Origin: Narcine bancroftii
Lineage: Eukaryota
Direction of reading: 5' to 3'
Assembly (NCBI RefSeq): GCF_036971445.1
Contig: NC_091472.1
Location: 89,714,001 to 89,778,000, forward strand
Length of the DNA stretch: 64,000 bases
Below, one piece after another: positions 227-64,000 of the stretch (its first letter is position 1; each line of letters begins with the position of its first letter). The notes beneath the pieces were generated by a model. The model searched no databases. It had not been told where the DNA came from and saw nothing but the letters and a program-made list of their open reading frames with translations. A program made the translations under genes and the position numbers.

Positions 227-1163
227 GTACCAATGACAGACATAGCAAAACTGGTAAGGTCCTGAAGGTGATTATAGGAGGTAAGGAAAGAAGCTAAAGA
301 ACAGTACCTCAAGGGTGTTAATCTCTAAATTGCTGCCTGTACCACATGCTAGTGAGAAAAATAGGAAATTAAGGCAGATGAATGTGGTTGAAGAGTTGGT
401 GTGGGGGTTCAGATTTGTGGATTCTATTGCCCATTGTTATTGATGGGAACAGTCATAGAGAGTACCCTGTACTGACTTCCTGCATGTATTCTGATCTTCA
501 TGTGAGCCAATTATTCCTAAACCTCTCCAACATCACCACTGTTGGAACCTCATGTTCACTTTTACAGCATCTAAAGTTTGGAGCCATAATATCAGCAATT
601 GGCCCATGAGGTCAAATTAATTTTTATTTAATTAGAGGGCTGCAAATCTTTGGAAATTTGAATACCAGTGTCTTGAAGACTGAGGGATTTTCTTTAAAAA
701 TTGAAGGGAACCAAGAGACATGGAATTGATAGGCTCACAGTTCTGATTTCTATTTATGTTTTGATACTATTGTTCAGTTAAAAAAATCCTGAGAGCCTTT
801 CAGTTTGAGATTTAGTTCAATGTCTGTGACATGGCCTTGAATACAGCACTTGTTAGGATTCACTGAAATGATGTTCAAATAAATTGGTAACTAGTGCACA
901 ATATTGAACAAAGAAAATAAACTAACAAGATGTGTAGTTCCGATAACCTGTGAAATGGAATTCTAAATGTAGCAGTGGTTTTAATGTGGAAAGTAGCTCG
1001 GCAGAGAAAAACATTATCCCTGACCTTATCTAGATTTCAATTCCTGATGGCTAGACCACAAGTAATCACCAACAGGAATCTTATTTCCTTGAACTAAATG
1101 TAAACTTGGGAGAAAAGTCAGATTAATTATCTAAGAATTTCTGGGTTGAAAACATGTTTACAG

Positions 1164-1338
1164 GGTATTCCATCAGCCAAGTGGCAGACTGCTGGAAGTT
1201 GAGACAACACAGCCAGGAATTCAGTTTTACACTGCCAATTTTCTTGATGGAAGCTTGAAGGGCAAAGAAGGAGCAACTTATCCTAAGCATTCAGCTTTTT
1301 GCCTGGAAACCCAGAACTGGCCCAATGCTGTCAACAAG
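1164..1338 (+). CDS. GALM: Galactose mutarotase (aldose 1-epimerase), penultimate coding exon
   Basis: tttacAG acceptor and AAG|GTTGGT donor, 175 nt. Translates VFHQPSGRLLEVETTQPGIQFYTANFLDGSLKGKEGATYPKHSAFCLETQNWPNAVNK, with the GALM motifs QPGxQFYT and FCLETQ. Confidence 0.95.
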
Positions 1339-1602
1339 GTTGGTTTCTTGGGCATGGTGGGGAAGATAAAGGTAAAAGGGGGTGATGATGAATTATAATT
1401 TTGTTTGACCATTTTATTGTCCAAAACCATCATTTGTTTTCATTGTTTTAAAATTTCACTGCACAAAAATGAAAAAAAAACTGTAGCAATGGTATACTTG
1501 CATAGTAGCAGCTTTATGCAATAAAAGATTCTCTTCATAAATGGGAGTTTTAAAAGGAAGCACAACAGGAGGCTAACTCAACTAAATGTTTATGTATTGC
1601 AG

Positions 1603-27079: not shown

Positions 27080-27260
27080 TTGCCATCCAAACCACGAACA
27101 GCATCTTCAGCATCTCGAGGCTCCTCAAACTCCACAAAAGCAAAACCAGGGGGATTCCGTGCTATCCAGACAGTCCTCAATGGTCCGTAGTAGCTGAATG
27201 CACGCTCTAGTTCCCCTTTACCGGCACCTGTTCCCAAGTTACCTACATAGACCTTGGTTT
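27080..27260 (-). CDS. SRSF7: SRSF7 exon 2 (181 nt; RRM)
   Basis: [59 protein letters not shown], with caacAG acceptor and GTAAGT donor. Confidence 0.98.
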
Positions 27261-43655: not shown

Positions 43656-46374
43656 AGTACAATGGGCAAGATGTTTTGGATCTTAAAATAGCAAGCTATA
43701 AAATCTAAGCAAATGAAAAGCTGTGGAAAGTGAAGAAAACTGAATGTTTTGCAAAATTTTGAAGGATACTCCTGCATGAGAACTGAGAATTAACAATTCT
43801 GTGAGAAAACAAAATTCTTTCAAGTTCTTGCAAGATCTTTAAAACTTCAACTAATGGAAACACACTTGGACAAGTCTCCCAGGAACTCTCCCTGACTTAG
43901 ACCTCCACATAATAATGGCTTAAACTAAAAAACAGTTTTTTAAAAAACCTATACGATAAAGACATACCGATATAAAGATATTCCCATTCAACCGCACTTC
44001 CAACTATCACCCTCGTGGTACCAATCTGCACAAATGAGATTTAAAAAAAATCACTGGAAGTTAACAATAAGGCACAAGGTCCTATTTTCTACATCCTAGG
44101 TTTCACTTTTAACATAAAATCCCAGTTCAACTTTACAGTGACCTTTGCTCAAATATTTTAACAGAAAATTCATCTGGGAAGCAATACTAGAGGCAAAAGT
44201 TACTTTGCCTTCCCGAAAAAGTTACAAATATTCTAAATAACCTCAATTTCTGACCAAACCCGGGGAGGGGGGGGGGGGGGTGGGGGGGTGGGGTTTGGTG
44301 AAACGGGGAAAAAAAAACATTTTAGTGTTACTGGATCCACATGGATAATAAAGCACAATATTTTGTTGTTTTATATGACAAGTACTTTGAATATCTAGAA
44401 GTCCAGCTCAAACTATTTTATATTTACATTAATTCAACTAAACTATATGACCAGTTTAAATTTACCCCACATTTATTCAAAAAGGACAGATGTTTTTGGT
44501 CAAACAGAAGTGTGGGATTGGCATCCATCTCCAAATTCCAATTCCTATGGATATGTAAAACTACAGAACACCCAAAATCAAAAACACAAAGACTTTAAAT
44601 GCAGAGTTAAAGAATGCTCAGATACAATGCAACTATGTTTTACATTGAAAGAGATGAAGTGCAGAGTAGCCATCATTTACTTATTTCTATATTAAATGCA
44701 CATTATTTGAAAGCCAAATTAAAGTTTTCCAATAGCATGTATACACTCAAACACCTGCAACAGCAGATGTTTAAATGTAAATCATCGACAGAAATGCATT
44801 TTTCAATTGGCACAAATGTATCTTTGTCATAAGTAACACATATTTAATGTTAAAATATGCAACTACAGTATAAAAAACATTAAACACATTAACTGAACAG
44901 AAACATCTTTTCAAAGTGGTAAACTAATCTGCTTTCCAGGATTGAAATTTCAAAAACCTTAATTTAAAAAAAAATCAATTGCAGTATCAAACCTTAATCT
45001 ACAAATCCAAGATTCACATGAACTAGAATCATATTCAATTTAAAACATGAATTCAACATACCACATTTAATTTGATGTGGCTTAATTATAGATTAAAGGC
45101 CATACCTGGGTCATGAATTTTTTTTAAAACAGATTTTTACGTCCATTTTGTCTACAAGTCAGTAAATATACAGGAATCATTCAATATGGTAACAATGAGA
45201 TGAAAACACTGAAAGGGAGATATAAAATTCTGGTAGTCATAAAAACATACTTATGTGCGAATGTCAAACTTTTTCATTTGATATCATAGACGCTCATTTG
45301 TACACATCTCCATAGGTCAAGCATCCATATCCTGGGGATGATCAGAAACGGTGAGACTGCAATGCAGCAATAAACCGATTTTTCATCTGAAGGATTTCAT
45401 TGTACTTCCTCTCAGAATATTATTAGCTTCCTCATTCAAAAACAGAATTGCAGTTTCTACTGCAAGATTACAAGAATGCAATATGCAGCTACTTACTGAA
45501 AAATAATGCAACAAACTAACCACATAAAAATTTCAACATGGAGGCTTCCATTCAGTTCTGCAGGGAATTCAGTTCAGCGGAGAATTCTGCTTTTCAGAAA
45601 AGGCTGAATGTTGCCCAAGGAGAGAGAGAATAAAATTACAAACTCTAAAAGTGATCTTAAGATTTAAAAGCAAATCCAATGATAGAAATAATTAAGCCAT
45701 GCAAAGCGACTTTCACCAAATCTGGCCTAACTTAAGAATTCATATAATGTCTATGCTGCCTCAGGATGCTCCAAACAGCATTGCCTAGAATTATACAAAA
45801 GTTGTCATTTGAGGCCATCAGCATATCCATGTCAAGCAAGATTGTAATGTCATAGTATAGAACATGTAATATTACACAAAATTGCCATTTCAACCAGAAG
45901 ACTACTTAACAATTTCACATTCTAGCCATAACTCCAGTTACTCAAAATTCTTTTTAAAGTTTCTATCTCAACTACTCTTAGACAGACATTTCCTGGTCTC
46001 CATGCTAATTCCATCATCAATTGCTTAGATTTTTTTGCCACCCAGTTTTTCAACCCTCTTTGGGAAACCGTTTTAAGCACCCTCTTAGGGAAACTGTCTT
46101 TAATCTTTCAAATTTAATTATACTCAAATATACTTTATATTGTCCAAAAGCAATAGTTTCTCAAAGCTATAATTCTCCAGTCCTGGCAAGACTCCTCTGC
46201 AAACCAAGTGAAATCAATGTTCCTGTTGTGCGATTTGTTAAAATGTTGCAACATAATTCTAGCATAACTTTGTAATCTATACTTCAGCTAATATATCGAA
46301 ATATATTTTTATTCATTTCATTGATCCATCAAGTTACTCACTATCCTTTCCATTATTTCATTTTTTTTTAATTT

Positions 46375-49349: not shown

Positions 49350-50450
49350 CAGGGAAGACATCGGCCAGGGCCCGCCAAAGAGCGCGCGCAACACAACGGC
49401 TTTCCTTTTCAGGGACTCACTCCCTCCAACCCAGCAGCCTGATGCTGCACATCGTCCTTCCAGTTCAACCAAACCAATTTCCCCTGAAAGAAAACCTCAC
49501 ATTAAAATAACAAGGGCCACATAAATGACGTGAGGGAAGAGAAAAAGCGGCCGCCATTTCGCGGCTTCGACCCCCGCCATGCTGGAGGTTGGCGTACCAC
49601 CATCGCGCCGATGGCAGCTTCCGCACCTTTAGGGATCGCTCAGAAGCATCCTACTTCAGAGGGATGGGGGTGGGAACAAGACGTTGGCTTGCATCGATGT
49701 TCTTATGTTCTGTTTGGGTATCCCTTCAGTACTAAACGGGGGGAATCCTCACCTCCACCGCACCGGTTGTATCGGGACATAATAACACACTCACTCTTCC
49801 CTCTGCCTGGTCTCCATTAACTGAGAGCGAATCCCAACCAGCTTCTGCCGTTTGCGCGTGCGCACTGGGAGCACGGCACATACGGGCACTCAGCAGAAGC
49901 CCCGCCTGGCATGACGGCTTTGGAAAGGACAGCAGTTCGGGATGGAGTTTGAAGGGAGGTCACGTGCGCCGCACCCCCCCCCAACGCTTCTGACGTGAGG
50001 AATCTCCGACCTCCATATTGATCGTTGTGTTTGCTTTGGAATAAGAGAGTTCCTGATTTCAAAATGGCGTCTGCAACGCTACAAAAAGCCGCGACGAAGT
50101 CGTACGCATCCTAATTTAGAGGCAGTGAGGGGTGAGGTACCCATTGCTGAATAACTCTAGAACATAGCGACCGGTTTATTGGGGCTTGCATCGCGATGTT
50201 TGCACGGATTTGATTGTAATCTTTGGTTCTTTAAGATGTCTTTTGTACGGCACCTTGCAAACACCCAATTAAACATTTTAAAAGCCATTTTAAGTAAAAA
50301 TGACGAAAACCGAAGATCTGCACGGCGTCATGTTTGAGAAAATACCCACGTTTCCCTCCAATTAATTCATATTTATTGCAAAGCTCTTACCCACGAGGTG
50401 ATCCCACGAGCGACACCGAGAGTAACGAATGCCGATTAATTTCTCCTCCT
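49350..50450. promoter_or_regulatory. CpG-island promoter of SRSF7, possibly bidirectional
   Basis: High CpG density. NRF1-like TGCGCGTGCGCA (~49853), E-box GGTCACGTG (~49958), CRE-like TGACGTGA (~49991), YY1-like AAATGGCG on - (~49552) and on + (~50062). Confidence 0.85.
49753..49780 (-). CDS. SRSF7: SRSF7 exon 1, coding part (28 nt)
   Basis: ATG TCC CGA TAC AAC CGG TGC GGT GGA G|GTGAGG encodes MSRYNRCGG(E), joins exon 2 in frame, and lies in a CpG island. Confidence 0.95.
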
Positions 50451-51689: not shown

Positions 51690-52465
51690 TGTGATGTTCT
51701 AAGGACTAGCTCCCTCCCCGACTCCGCCCCCACATAGCCCACAATGAACGCTGGATCCCCTGCCAAAACCAAAAGTGCGTGGTACTCTCTCTGGTCTTGT
51801 GTACACTCTCACGCTGCAATTTTATTCATTAAGAGTAGGATGGAAGCTCTGTTGAAGCCTGCGATGCTCCTAATCAACTCTCTGTCCCCAGAGGCCCCAG
51901 AAGAGTTCGCGTACTGGCTGGAGTGCTTCCAAATGTACTTGACGGCAACACAAATGGCCTACTCAACAGATGAGCTCAAGAGGTCCGCGCTCCTCTCTCT
52001 TGTTGGACCTAAAGGATTCATGATCATCAGGGACTGTACAACTTATGAGTCGGCAGTCAAAAGGCTGAAGGCTCACTACATGAGGCCCCAGAATGTCGTC
52101 CTCGTGAGGCATCAGCTCTTGTAACAGAAGCAGTGGCCTGGTGAATTCACTGAAGATTTTGACCTCATCCTACAAGCACTCGCAAGAAACTGTGGGTACG
52201 AGTACAGCATGGCCTGAGAACGGGAAGAAGAGCAGATCTGGGGCACTCTTGTTGGTGGCATGAGGTCCAAGTACATAAGGCAGCGGTTGCTAGAGCAAGG
52301 CAGTGCGGCGCAGTCTGACAACGTACAGCTGGCCAAGTCGCTAGAGATGGCCCAACTGGGAGCTGATAACTTGGAAGGCAGCAGCAGCATCCTCCAGGAT
52401 GATCTGGTTCCCAGAGCAGCTCCACAGGCTACATCAGCCATGAAGGCGGCAGCCTCCAGCATATT
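51690..52465 (+). mobile_element. Gypsy-like LTR retrotransposon relic: short 5' LTR and degenerate gag
   Basis: TGTGATG...GCTGCA (51690-51818), then ATG 51840 MEALLKP...FAYWLECFQMYL...PQNVVLVRHQLL and VGGMRSKYIRQRLLE, a gag-like pattern. Stops present and no pol. Confidence 0.75.
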
Positions 52466-54169: not shown

Positions 54170-54850
54170 TCTTCTCCCTGACAATTAACATAGGGGCACT
54201 CTCTATTACACCCATAACTGTATGGCTAGGCATAATTCAAATGCCATCTATAAATTTGCCGGTGACACCATGGTCGTCGGCAGAATCACAGATGGCAATG
54301 AGGAAGCGTACAGGAGCGAGATAGATCAGTTAGTTGTCTGGTTACACAACAACCTTGCACACAATGTTAGCAAAACTAAGGAATTAATTGTGGACTTCAG
54401 GAAGGGGAAAACAGAAGAACATAAACCAGTCGTCATTGAGGGGTCAGCAAAAGAAAGAGTAAAGAACTTCAAACTCCTGAATGTTAATATCTCTGAAGAT
54501 CTATTCTTCATGTTAATGCAATATATTTCATGAGGATTTTGAGGAAATTTGTTATGTCATCAAAGACTCTTGCAAATTTCCTCAGCCAATGCACAGGACA
54601 GGAAAATACTAGAGGGTTGTGAATTCAGCCAGCGCCATGAAGGAGATTATTCATCTCTCCATTAAGGACATCTTTAAGAGATGGTGTCTCAAGAAAGCAG
54701 CTTCTATCATCAAGGACCCTCATCACCCAGGCTATGTCTTTTTCTCACTGCTACCATCATGAAGGAGGTGCAGGACCCTGAAGATGCAGACCCAGTGTTA
54801 CAAAAACAGCCTCTTCCCCTCTGCCATCAGATTTCTGAATGGACACAAGT
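54170..54850 (+). mobile_element. Rex1/Babar-like LINE, 3' fragment
   Basis: IYKFAGDTMVVGRI...NVSKTKELIVDFRK. Confidence 0.85.
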
Positions 54851-55525
54851 TCGAGTTTATTTATCATACAATTGAAACAGTGTTCTCAGTGCAAAAGCAC
54901 ACCACCAGACATAATACAGACAAGTGATTCCTATGCACAAGCTCACTTTTCACACTAATGATCTATTTTTAAAAATCTTGCCTCTAGGCAACAAAGCAAC
55001 ACATTTCAAGCCACATGTTCATGACAATAAACCTTATTCTGATTCCAAACAATTTTCAATCTTCTCCAGCAGGTGGCTTTTATAGGCCTGAGTAAGGCCT
55101 CAACCCATATATAGAGGATGAGTGAGTTATTCTAAGCCATTTACAGTCTACACTTGTTTAAAATCTGTACTGTTACTTTCGAGTCGTTAACTATAAAATG
55201 TGAAAGTCCTTCAGAAGCAGCAAGGCCAATGGATTTCAGAAGACTTCCTTTTGTAGAAACAGAGATTAACTGCTGCAAACTGAGCTGTTAGGTCAGGAAG
55301 AAAACTTTTCCTTTGTCAACATTTGCTTTGGTCTGGACACAGTCGAAGGAAGTGACAAAACGGCAAGAAGTCTTTCTTCAGTGTTGCCTTTGCCGCAGCT
55401 GGAAAACCTTCTCTGAACCAAGTTCCTTTGGTCTTTTATTCGTCATTCTGAGAAGTTGGGGTTTTTCAGATTTACCACTTGAAGTTGTGGTTTCCAGGAA
55501 CCTATTTGATGTTGATTCGACAAAA

Positions 55526-56056
55526 ATGGGTAAATACCTTTCAAAGATTTTTGGAAACAAAGAAATGCGGATTCTGATGTTGGGCCTAGATGCGGCCGGG
55601 AAGACCACTGTCCTGTTCAAACTCAAGCTGGGCCAGCCCACCAGCACCATCCCGACCGTGGGCTTTAATGTCGAGACGGTCACGTACAGGAATGTGCGGT
55701 TCAATATCTGGGATGTAGGCGGCCAGGACAAGATCCGACCTCTTTGGAGACACTATTACACAGGCACGCAGGGGCTGATCTTTGTGGTGGACTGCGCCGA
55801 CCGCGATCGCATTGATGAAGCTCGGCAAGAGCTGTACCGCATCATTAATGACAGAGAAATGCGTGATGCCGTCATTCTGGTCCTTGCAAATAAGCAAGAC
55901 CTGCCCCAGGCCATGAAACCTCACGAGATTCAGGAGAAATTGGGCCTGACTCGAATACGAGATCGCAACTGGTATGTTCAACCTTCCTCGGCAACCACTG
56001 GTGATGGACTTTATGAAGGGTTGACCTGGTTAACTTCCAATTATAAGGCAACTTGA
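55526..56056 (+). CDS. ARF6: ADP-ribosylation factor 6-like small GTPase (176 aa, divergent paralogue)
   Basis: Uninterrupted [31 protein letters not shown]...WDVGGQ...NKQD...TSNYKAT with the Gly2 myristoylation site and short class III N-terminus; context aaaATGG. Confidence 0.95.
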
Positions 56057-56853
56057 GAAGAAAGTTCCAACTGGCGGAGTGAAGATTCCAAGCTCATTGC
56101 TCTCAGCGTAGAAGAGTGGACGTGGAATTGATTCAAATAAAGAAAAGCTACTTCTGAAGATGTAGCAGGAATGATACAAGTAGATTTGTTTCTCCCTTGT
56201 ACTTGATTTATTAGGAATTGCACTAAAATCCAGCACTCCAATGAAAGTTGCTTAATTGTAGTCTAAAGATAAGATATAGGATAAAAACGTTTTACTAATT
56301 AATTTTAAGGTGGTTACTAATTATAGAGTTCATTGGAAGATTGCTAAAAAGCACCCATGTACTAACCTGCTTTTTTATTTATCTCTCTTCAAACAATTAG
56401 ATAAAACACTGCTGAATTCAATTCTGAACACTACTGTTGATTTATTATTGATCTGGTGCTTTTTGTGCAGGTTTGGAGAACAGATTTGATGTCTTTATTT
56501 GATCATGATGACAGTAGGAATATTTATGTTCTTATGATGTGATTTTCTAAAATTAATTATTTTGCTGTTTTGCCATAGTGTGTTGGAAGAGGTTTGTTTC
56601 CCTGCTGTATAATTCAATTACTCCAAAAAATGCCACGGTAACACTTATGTTTTGCTCTACTCTAGTTACTTAATTGCAAAGTGTTAAAATATTTAACAAA
56701 GGCTATAGATATATATATATATTCCAATATTCTTTTTGCAAATAATGAGTGAAAACAGAATTAGTATACCTCATTTCTGAAACCTGGGACTATTTCTGAG
56801 TTTCATGTCAATTATGAATGTGTCCTGGAGTACAAAGTTAACAAGCTCAGGGG

Positions 56854-56859
56854 AATAAA
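56854..56859 (+). terminator. Candidate ARF6-like polyadenylation signal
   Basis: AATAAA at the end of about 800 nt of AU-rich, repeat-free sequence; another AATAAA lies at 56136-56141. Confidence 0.4.
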
Positions 56860-58036
56860 TGTACACTTTTTTAAAAAAAAAAATTAAGCAATGTGCTTGA
56901 ATACATCCTAAACTAATTCTGTTGGTGTTGCCTAACAACTGTTGTCATTTTGAAAATTTGCAATCATCAGGTTAAGCTGCTGCAAAGGTTACTGAAGTAG
57001 TGTTTGTCCAGTTTACACTATGCAACTGTAATGACAAAAAGGGACAATGCATACTTGGAGAATAGATTCAACACCACAGTTTCATAATTGTGATTTAAAT
57101 AATAGTGTTCTTTCATTCCAAGTCTTGTTTGACAAATGCACCACAGGCCAACAATTTCTATTTTGCACTTCAAATTCAAAAAGGATCCTTCCACAGCTTA
57201 CCAAACTTGGTTTGTTAAAGATTTAATGGATATGGAGGATGCTAAGAAAATATTGTCTATTTGTGTGAAGTTACTAAAATGGAAGCAGAAAAGGTTTAAT
57301 AGGGAAGAGTACTGGTGTGGAGAACCTGGGATGCTTGGCTTTAGAGCAGAGAAGGTGAAGAGGTTGAATAAAACTAGCAAATACTCACCAGGCCAGGCAT
57401 GAGAAACAGTTAACATTTAAGGAGGATCCTGAACCTGGATTGTTTACAGTGTCTGTTGCCCATATGCTACCTAACCTGCCTAGTGTTTCCAGCATTTTCT
57501 ATTTTTAATCACAGATTTCCAGCATCTGCAATTTTTAATTTTTAGGTTGAACAAAAATGGTCAAGTCATGAAACTGTCCCCATTGCCTGATGGGTCAAGA
57601 AGCAGGGAACAAAATCTGAATGTAACACTGGGGGAGGAGGGGAGAGGATGGTGGAAGAGTAGGGGATTCAAGAAAATAAAATCCATGCAGCAAGTAATCA
57701 GGGTCTGGGATTGAGTAGCTGAAAGATGATGGAAGCAGTCATTTGTTGCTTAAAACAGAGGATATGAGAGAAAAGAAAAATCACAGAGCTCCTAAGAAAA
57801 GTGTAGGTTATGGGATGGTGTAAATTCTCTGGGATGTTTCTAATGGGTTGATTCACCTTCTATTATGCTTCTGTGGTTCTTGTTGAATGGTGCATTGAAG
57901 CAATAATTTGCATTTCGAGGCAATCACTTTCCAGCTCTACTGATCTCCTAATTTTGTAATTTGAGGAAATCAAAGATGCAGAAATGTGCAAAATGGGAAG
58001 GAGGAAAACCTCAGGATGTTGGTGTACTAATAAACT

Positions 58037-62303: not shown

Positions 62304-63297
62304 TGTGACAGAGTATATAGAGATATTTATAGTTATGTTTTTGGGAGAAAAATTGGGGAAGGTTTGTTAGAATGGGTCACATTACAAACACTTTAAAACA
62401 GATCTTATTTAAAATACTGGAGTTCTGCCCCATGGTAGACATATCGGCTCCAGATCTTTTGCAAGAGCTTTTGAAGAGTGCTAAAGAGACTTTACTAATG
62501 GATTGTTTACAAAAGGTAACAAATGAAAGAACATGTCAGAGCCACTATGTCTGGAGGAGAGCTTGCTGTAAGAGGGTCATGTGGTTTTGCAAGCAGAGAG
62601 AGTCAAACAGGCTTTTCTCAGAGAGCGAGAGGCACACACAGATCACTTGAACAATGTTACAGACAGCAGCTGGGACTGGAACAGGACAAGCTAGGAAGCT
62701 TATGAAAAGTCTATTTGGAAGACAGCCTGGTCAAAGCCCTTGTGGTTCATGCAAGAGGGGAGGACTGGCTATCTAATGTTTCATTTGGAATAAGGGAAAC
62801 AAAAAGGAACTCTGTGGTGACCTGAAAGAAAGAGGTTATCATCTGGAGAACCCTGAAGGGGCAAGTTTCATCAGCAAGACAATGGAGTGGCTGATGGAAG
62901 TACATCAGTTATGGATGTCCTGAAACAACAAATCTCTCTCTGAAAATGAACAGGAACCTTCCTGAGTGGTAACCATTTACCTTTCAAGCACCAAAGCCTG
63001 GTGAACTTTGTATATGTTAAATTCTGTGCACAGTATAAGAATTGCCTGCAACCAGTGAACTTGGAGGAATGAGAAGTGAGATTGGACTGTGAACCAAATA
63101 ACTTTTCTAAACGTACACAAATATTACATACACGTGCGCTTAGAATTAGAAGGGGATTATATTAAGTAAGTAAGAAGTTAACGTTTGATTCTGTTTTCAT
63201 GTTTAAAGATAATTAAAAGTAACTTTTGTTTAAGTCACTATTTGTCTTGGTGACTATCTATTGCTGCTGGGTTTATGGGTCCGCTGGGCTCGTAACA
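62304..63297 (+). mobile_element. Solo LTR family A
   Basis: TGTGACA...CGTAACA termini, collinear with 20712-21785; no clear TSD. Confidence 0.88.
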
Positions 63298-63474
63298 AGC
63301 TACCTATTGCATGCATTATTTCCCATTGTCTAATGTTTCAGTGTTGTCTGGGAATGGTTACTTCCACAACGTTTGGGGACAGAGATGAAACAGCAAGCCC
63401 TTCTCAAAATTATTCCTGTGTGGCACTTTGACTGCTTTCTCCTCTTATTTCTAATTGATTCAATAAGAAGGAAG

Positions 63475-63890
63475 AAACGCCCAGTCGCTAAATCTAAATT
63501 TCAACCCAAAGGCGTCCTCGAGCTCTGCAACACCCAGATCCACACGTCACCGCGTCGTGTCGTTAACGACCTGCCCCTGGAAACGTCATTCACGTGCGCC
63601 GATCGCCAAGATGGTCGAATGAAGGCCGCCGTCGGGACGAGTGAGTGGATCCCGGGACGTTCAGAGGAGTCCGAGTCTCGGCTGGAGGGCTCAGGCCTGC
63701 TGTGCGAGGGGAACCAGAGGGGCCACCTGCGGACACAATTGGGTGAGGCTTCCCCCATCGACCCTCCCGTAGCACCGAGCTCCTTGCCCTCCATTCTCCC
63801 ACTCCGCCAACGAAATTCAGGACAGAATCGTACCGTAAGATCAGTTATCCGCAGGACACTGCTTTCACGTGAGATTTCACGCACCAGAAT
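63475..63890 (+). promoter_or_regulatory. CpG island with a probable first exon of a downstream + strand gene
   Basis: CpG-rich. CRE-like CACGTCA and AACGTCA, E-box TCACGTG, YY1-like AAGATGG at 63608, and a donor-like GA|GTGAGT at 63641. Confidence 0.65.
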
Positions 63891-64000
63891 AACGTTAGTG
63901 GTGGAATTATTGAAAGACCTGAGGGACCTGATTAATTTGCACTTGGGGGAGGCTCGGATGAATCAAGGATAGTTGGCATTCATTTCCTGACATGTATGAC

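Follow-up and report, generated by a model that had tools for sequence, protein, structure and literature searches.

An intact, divergent ARF6 gene beside SRSF7 in the ray Narcine bancroftii: one of three ARF6 genes and a likely whole-genome duplication copy retained in cartilaginous fishes

ARF6 is regarded as a nearly invariant gene that occurs in a single copy. In the window analyzed here, a stretch of 64,000 nucleotides from the ray Narcine bancroftii (NC_091472.1, positions 89,714,001 to 89,778,000 of the forward strand), a divergent reading frame of the ARF6 class lies beside SRSF7, which raises the questions of how this copy arose and what it might do. The original prediction regarded it as the second copy from a whole-genome duplication, with altered effector or GEF specificity. 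We put a probability of roughly 0.8 on a related reading, in which the gene is one of three ARF6 genes, likely a whole-genome duplication copy retained in cartilaginous fishes, partly redundant and altered in its exchange control.

The reading frame (55526..56056, + strand) runs from ATG to TGA without a stop or frameshift and forms the single-exon CDS of a small GTPase of 176 aa (P0001). Among solved structures the best match of the protein was ARF6 (367.8 bits, E 6.7e-110; ARF1, 264.9 bits, E 2.6e-78), the Pfam Arf family was matched at E 5e-76, and in the tree the protein was placed among vertebrate ARF6. The N-terminus, MGKYLS, is ungapped against ARF6 and makes a short helix with Gly2, the putative myristoylation site. 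Gly2, Lys3, the P-loop GLDAAGKT, Thr44, WDVGGQ, and NKQD are all kept, the G1–G4 motifs and the catalytic Gln67 are present, and the Phe47/Trp62/Tyr77 effector triad, Asn48, and the whole of switch II are unchanged; G5 reads SAT, not CAT. The intact 176-aa ORF that had been predicted was borne out, as was its distance of about 5.7 kb from SRSF7, the ATG of which (49780, − strand) lies 5,746 bases from the ORF start. There is a high probability that this is a working gene, and entries for its protein have already been deposited in NCBI and UniRef.

A search of the ray genome found three full-length, intact ARF6 genes among the 40 matches listed (87 candidates scored), i.e., the window copy on C9, one on C5 at 47.73 Mb, and one on C27 at 86.68 Mb. 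The window copy is thus not the only ARF6 in the genome, and the second, near-invariant ARF6 looked for near SOS2 was found on C5, beside SOS2 and ATL1. The prediction was right in taking the window gene for an ancient duplicate in a paralogous block but not in counting it as the second of two, as it is one of three. Against the mammalian type, the C5 protein has 4 differences and is identical to the deposited N. bancroftii ARF6, and the C27 protein has 8, of which 5 fall within the first 11 residues, and is identical to Chiloscyllium and Scyliorhinus proteins. All three copies have a single coding exon. Their nucleotide identity is 75–80%, and only the coding sequences align, with no shared flanks or UTR similarity; the approximately 1.1-kb 3′ flank of the window copy is single-copy in the genome. 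Synonymous sites are saturated (pS 0.79, 0.72, and 0.73 vs. pN 0.078, 0.092, and 0.043 for the three copy pairs), and therefore the between-copy dN/dS ratios are upper guides only. Between ray and shark, the window type shows 15/175 and 21/172 differences, the C5 type 4/175, and the C27 type none; the window copy changes faster than both sister copies (Fisher p 0.016 and 4e-5), and 85–91% identity is retained within its type across cartilaginous fishes. The C27 copy (1501–2028 of the fetched piece; GC3 0.92), whose identical protein occurs in several sharks, has a divergent N-terminus without Lys3, a residue described as a second myristoylation site (PMC7044312).

The surroundings of the three genes were compared. 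The C9 block consists of atlastin (−, 89.30–89.33 Mb), an hnRNPL-family gene (−, 89.52 Mb), GALM (+), SRSF7 (−), ARF6 (+, 89.77 Mb), GEMIN6 (+), and SOS (−, 90.10 Mb); the C5 block of ARF6 (+, 47.73 Mb), SOS (−, 47.88 Mb), CDKL (−, 48.07 Mb), and atlastin (+, 48.28 Mb); and the C27 block of CDKL (+, 86.61 Mb), ARF6 (+, 86.68 Mb), hnRNPL (+, 86.76 Mb), and RasGEF (+, 87.71 Mb). SOS and atlastin are common to C9 and C5, the hnRNPL family to C9 and C27, and CDKL to C5 and C27. On both C9 and C5, the 3′ end of SOS and ARF6 face each other in a convergent arrangement, and on both C9 and C27 ARF6 has hnRNPL to one side and the CDKL/SOS end of the block to the other. One C9 SOS exon matched SOS1 narrowly best (128.8 vs. 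126.4 bits for SOS2), and one C5 SOS exon matched SOS2 best (131.3 vs. 115.2 bits); SOS1 and SOS2 beside the C9 and C5 ARF6 genes match the human pair. The C5 atlastin exon is an ATL1 match, and C27 exons match hnRNP L and CDKL1. No structure match was obtained for the C27 RasGEF exon, and an ATL2 chain was not among the structure matches listed for the atlastin exon; we take these genes to be RASGRP on C27 and ATL2 on C9, and the C9 hnRNPL-family gene to be HNRNPLL. By human gene order, the C9, C5, and C27 blocks presumably correspond to human 2p22, 14q21-22, and 19q13. No MAP4K (CNH) gene appeared near any of the three ARF6 copies among the 12 matches listed of 33 candidates. A CDKL1-like gene adjoins the C27 ARF6 (86.61 Mb) and no CDKL match was found on C9, although the equivalent human block presumably holds CDKL4; the missing MAP4K and CDKL matches both speak against the block assignment. 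Two tandem hnRNP L-like genes, 74% alike in the exon tested, are located at C27:86760152 and 86809248. Within the window, a GALM (aldose 1-epimerase) exon was matched by sequence at 1135..1350 (+), and SRSF7 exon 1 (49753..49780, −, start codon at 49780) and exon 2 (RRM; 27080..27260, −) were located. Later exons of the latter gene gave RRM and zinc-knuckle matches; the name SRSF7 is our assumption from the expected sequence of the protein alongside these matches. Gemin6 coding exons are at C9:89789155 and 89800039, outside the window and approximately 19 kb downstream of the ARF6 ORF.

Four public runs from one study, none registered as RNA and their RNA status a guess, give a weak indication that the window ARF6 is transcribed. 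In all four, one contig per run covers 54816..57146 (+) unbroken with identical ORF letters, the start at 54816 being set by a repeat edge, and 0–3 of the 30 bins of the examined stretch are empty per run. The covered stretch includes TATAAAA at 55192 and approximately 1.1 kb of 3′ flank with AATAAA at 56136 and 56854. Candidate transcript starts are this TATAAAA or a shared CpG island (49500..50250), which holds SRSF7 exon 1 and a candidate non-coding exon on the opposite strand, with a GT donor at 50131/50132, that may belong to ARF6 or to GEMIN6. Contigs of two of the four runs begin at 50103, which would fit a splice branch there; the contigs run without a break through every candidate acceptor (55069/55072, 55256, 55398, and 55497). 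In one run, a contig passes from SRSF7 exon 1 to window sequence that follows a canonical acceptor at 45603, suggesting that this run contains spliced RNA. The sequence it enters from 49753 (approximately 45499–45603, −) is a candidate extra exon in SRSF7 intron 1, seen in this one run of the four; it would introduce a stop after 11 codons, as a poison exon does, and its 3′ end is guessed from a GTAAGT donor. A second CpG island (63250..64000, +) probably contains the GEMIN6 promoter and first exon. Retroelement fragments lie between the SRSF7 promoter and ARF6 at 51738–52465, which we take to be gag-like, and at approximately 54190–54850, where the contig depth of a LINE-like repeat is very high.

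In the protein tree (32 rows, 175 slowly changing columns, bootstrap not fully settled), the window protein formed a clade at 97/90 with three proteins automatically named "ADP-ribosylation factor 6-like" in RefSeq/GenBank, i.e., XP_078086329 of Mustelus asterias (P0158), XP_072353916 of Scyliorhinus torazame (P0163), and XP_007892562 of the chimaera Callorhinchus milii (P0033). P0184 was left out for a motif mismatch and P0111 because it is a superseded model of the P0163 gene. Only this protein tree links the proteins of the two sharks and the chimaera to the window locus, and all of them share P38, R55, Y104, S155, and T158 with the window protein. The 18 vertebrate rows group at 94/83 (drawn open), within which the order of the three copies is not resolved. 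A forced pairing of the window copy with the C5 copy of the ray was rejected (p-AU 0.0005); its union with the second copies of frog and lizard was not (p-AU 0.48). No bony-vertebrate protein with the marker set appeared among the matches listed in the protein searches, including the best 120 of 4,642 from a profile search, and cluster look-ups gave no further protein of this type among up to 15 listed members per cluster, clusters at 90% identity being able to hide members. Similarly, fused models joining ARF6 to SRSF7, GALM, or GEMIN6 domains in other species were absent among 107 matches, a weak test. Mammals have one ARF6 (PMC13273671); the window type appears to be missing from them, and its loss or divergence may be far older than mammals. 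The S. torazame copy lacks 3 residues of the last helix, carries R71Q, D109Y, and M112L at sites invariant in 178 other ARF6-like sequences, and may be decaying or mis-assembled.

The window ARF6 is very likely a copy from the early vertebrate whole-genome duplications and not a recent retrocopy, because it lies in one of a set of paralogous blocks, its synonymous sites are saturated, and it forms a clade with sharks and a chimaera. The chimaera and the saturation also show that the duplication predates the split of the cartilaginous fish lineages. It is improbable that the gene is an old retrocopy, or a transposed duplicate, whose insertion next to SRSF7 was a chance event predating the chimaera–shark split. 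Such an event would fit the single-exon CDS, the lack of a splice joint into ARF6 among the 15 of 27 joints listed, and a tree that leaves the order of the three copies open. However, the canonical C5 ARF6 likewise has a single coding exon, so an intronless coding sequence does not point to retroposition. Moreover, the gene occupies a paralogous position relative to SOS, the hnRNPL family, and atlastin, and the atlastin–SOS1 interval on C9 is only 0.81 Mb, or 0.024% of the assembly, which makes a chance insertion beside SRSF7 unlikely. Other hallmarks of a retrocopy are also wanting: there is no UTR similarity, and no poly(A) tract follows the 3′ flank except an 11-A run at 56873, which is inside the covered sequence. 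A recent lineage-specific duplicate or pseudogene, for which it may be said that no transcript structure is shown, is very improbable in view of the saturated synonymous sites, the p-AU of 0.0005, the relatives in three other genera, and the intact frame; a likely processed ARF pseudogene found elsewhere in this genome (C24:27.90 Mb) has stops and a frameshift. The recent retrocopy against which the tree was to be a check is likewise not what the 97/90 clade of cartilaginous fishes indicates.

The replacements were considered in comparison with mammalian ARF6 (a class III ARF; PDB 2A5D chain A), which also has a single coding exon and lies near SOS2, whereas the window copy adjoins SRSF7 and SOS1. 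The two share 158 of 175 residues, the length class, Gly2, Lys3, G1–G4, and the triad; they differ at 17 positions, among them Pro38, Arg55, Arg58, and Ser155, and the window protein has one extra C-terminal residue. The changes are V4Y, I29V, Y31F, S38P, V39T, T40S, K55R, K58R, V61I, H104Y, I116V, I119V, F120L, D128Q, C155S, S158T, and S175A; about 17 had been predicted against human ARF6, and all ten examples given were correct. The BLOSUM62 score is at least 0 for 14 of them. Residue counts covered proteins no longer than 330 aa that aligned over at least 165 columns and were at least 76% identical. At codon 38 (55637..55639, +), in switch I, Pro replaces the ARF6-typical Ser in all four species with this copy type, so that the Gln37-Ser38 signature becomes Gln37-Pro38. 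Pro38 also occurs in 15 of 178 other ARF6-like sequences, including those of limpet, tunicate, and lizards, and therefore Gln37-Ser38 is typical but not universal of ARF6; Pro38, Arg55, Arg58, and Tyr104 are each found in 5–15 of the 178. At codon 155 (55988..55990, +), Ser replaces the cysteine of the G5 CAT motif in 4/4 species of this type and in none of 177 other ARF6-like sequences, of which 165 have Cys. Cys155Ser is thus the most clade-specific change; the original prediction had listed it correctly, without giving it this weight. Ser at G5 occurred in 14 of 194 motif matches, 10 of which, beyond those of this type, came from non-ARF6 ARF proteins, and the residue is therefore tolerated. 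Among the four species, 46 positions are changed in at least one, several of the interswitch changes are private to this ray, and V39T is private to N. bancroftii.

Residues 36–61 hold 6 of the 17 changes (p 0.03 against a uniform distribution and 0.004 against 178 other ARF6-like sequences, for a range chosen post hoc), and switch I with the interswitch alone reaches only p 0.05–0.06. The predicted clustering at Gln37-Ser38 and the interswitch was thus present but modest, made up partly of conservative changes (K55R, K58R, and V61I), and variable among species. The JIP4 determinants of ARF6, Thr53, Lys58, Asn60, and Thr79 (PMC10547916), read T, R, N, and T in the window protein, i.e., three of the four are kept and one is changed conservatively.

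Since G1–G4, Gly2, Lys3, Asn48, the triad, and switch II are kept, the window ARF6 should cycle and bind most ARF6 effectors. It would be expressed, be myristoylated on Gly2, bind GDP and GTP, and, as ARF6 does, serve as a switch on membranes in endocytic recycling and for the cortical actin. Our proposal is a partly redundant ARF6 that would have altered nucleotide-exchange control rather than new effectors. In ARF6, Ser38 is reported to govern the release of GDP (review PMC10547916); with Pro38 in its place, the contact reported to speed this release would be lost. The CAT motif is named in Arf6, and in ARF1, whose Cys159 aligns with ARF6 Cys155, C159S abolishes the redox response, i.e., oxidant-driven GDP release (PMC12192700); in addition, ARF1 with C159A is no longer palmitoylated and its GTP-bound form is raised (PMC13273671). 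Without Cys155, the equivalent redox and palmitoylation site would be gone, and the window copy, lacking this regulatory cysteine, may be controlled differently. The two ARF1 reports point in opposite directions as to how activation would change. In the ARF1 and ARF6 literature consulted, no demonstration of redox control or of palmitoylation at Cys155 was found for ARF6 itself. That Cys155Ser and Ser38Pro alter regulation in vivo is a tentative suggestion, with the odds somewhat against it. A wider scheme is doubtful, in which at least three early jawed-vertebrate ARF6 genes split lipid and redox controls among them, the window copy being blind to oxidant and palmitate with its own exchange rate and the C27 copy being without Lys3; if it held, mutants that are otherwise engineered in cell biology would exist naturally in cartilaginous fishes.

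The differences could equally be caused by drift under relaxed constraint, i.e., a redundant ARF6 of the same ancient origin that is slowly decaying and already lost elsewhere. For the function only, this explanation falls just short of an even chance and is about as likely as a new function, because the window copy is faster than its sisters (Fisher p as given above) and the Scyliorhinus protein, with its deletion and unusual changes, looks eroded. The mild BLOSUM62 scores, the many positions that vary among the four species, and the presence of Pro38, Arg55, Arg58, and Tyr104 in other ARF6-like sequences point the same way. On the other hand, five changes are fixed in all four species, in holocephalans and elasmobranchs alike, Ser155 is in no other ARF6 examined, and the retained identity and intact G1–G4 do not suggest decay. 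The functional part of the original prediction, a new specificity for effectors or GEFs brought about by switch I and the interswitch, fared less well and is unlikely. It could draw on the excess in residues 36–61, on residue 58, which differs from ARF6 in 4/4 species and is a JIP4 determinant (PMC10547916), and on the loss of actin remodelling in the ARF6 Q37E/S38I mutant (PMC3207291). Nevertheless, K58R is conservative, this ray retains Thr53, Asn60, Thr79, the triad, and all of switch II, V39T is private, and Pro38 is not exclusive to this type; moreover, there is no fixed new surface, because residues 53, 56, 58, and 60 vary between the species, and the p values for switch I and the interswitch alone are marginal.

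Searches of the literature for ARF6 with shark, paralogue, ohnologue, duplication, synteny, or paralogon found no paper on a triplication; most subscription papers were outside their scope, and supplements of shark genomes (e.g., PMC8455134) may list the copies. Whole-genome duplication expansions have been described for ARF1-3 and ARF4-5 (Vargova et al. 2021, PMC8358228), the same kind of event in the same family. In the available text of that paper, Arf6 duplicates only sporadically and no vertebrate Arf6 expansion is given; a term search of its supplement, as available, gave no match for Callorhinchus, Xenopus, Danio, or Gallus, and of the three Takifugu Arf6 proteins there, the two given in full are without the marker residues of the window copy. 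The window ARF6 is thus newly described here yet belongs to a well-known kind, with its orthologues already annotated as "ARF6-like", and the evolutionary surprise is modest because retained extra duplicates are common in sharks. The three copies in paralogous blocks correct the single-copy view of ARF6 for jawed vertebrates, and genes labelled "ARF6" in fish, frog, and lizard are possibly not orthologous. With a natural, long-retained Cys155Ser/Ser38Pro variant, it can also be tested directly whether ARF6 is subject to the redox and palmitoylation controls reported for ARF1 Cys159.

Other genomes and other parts of this one hold further ARF-related sequences. The pseudogene on C24 (27902200–27902700) is an intronless, broken, class II-like ARF that is likely processed. 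A Danionella model (P0013) fuses FAU to an ARF6, which hints at a FAU-linked copy in cyprinids; FAU of the ray is at C5:38.01 Mb, which puts 9.7 Mb between it and the C5 ARF6, and the 30 kb examined at FAU contained no ARF6. Lizards and snakes (P0149–P0162, P0251) carry a second ARF6 with Pro38, often on contigs of 27–30 Mb, and a fused lizard model joins it to a SMOC gene, the exons of which mostly match C27 better than C5. This squamate "ARF6-like" protein (P0149 group) and that of Xenopus tropicalis (P0028) are likewise extra vertebrate ARF6 proteins; the squamate one shares Pro38, and in some cases Arg58, with the window copy, but both keep Cys155, Lys55, and His104 and form a separate clade (89/86). 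The X. tropicalis protein naturally carries Asn157, the same change as in T157N, a laboratory fast-cycling mutant of ARF6 (PMC4370635).
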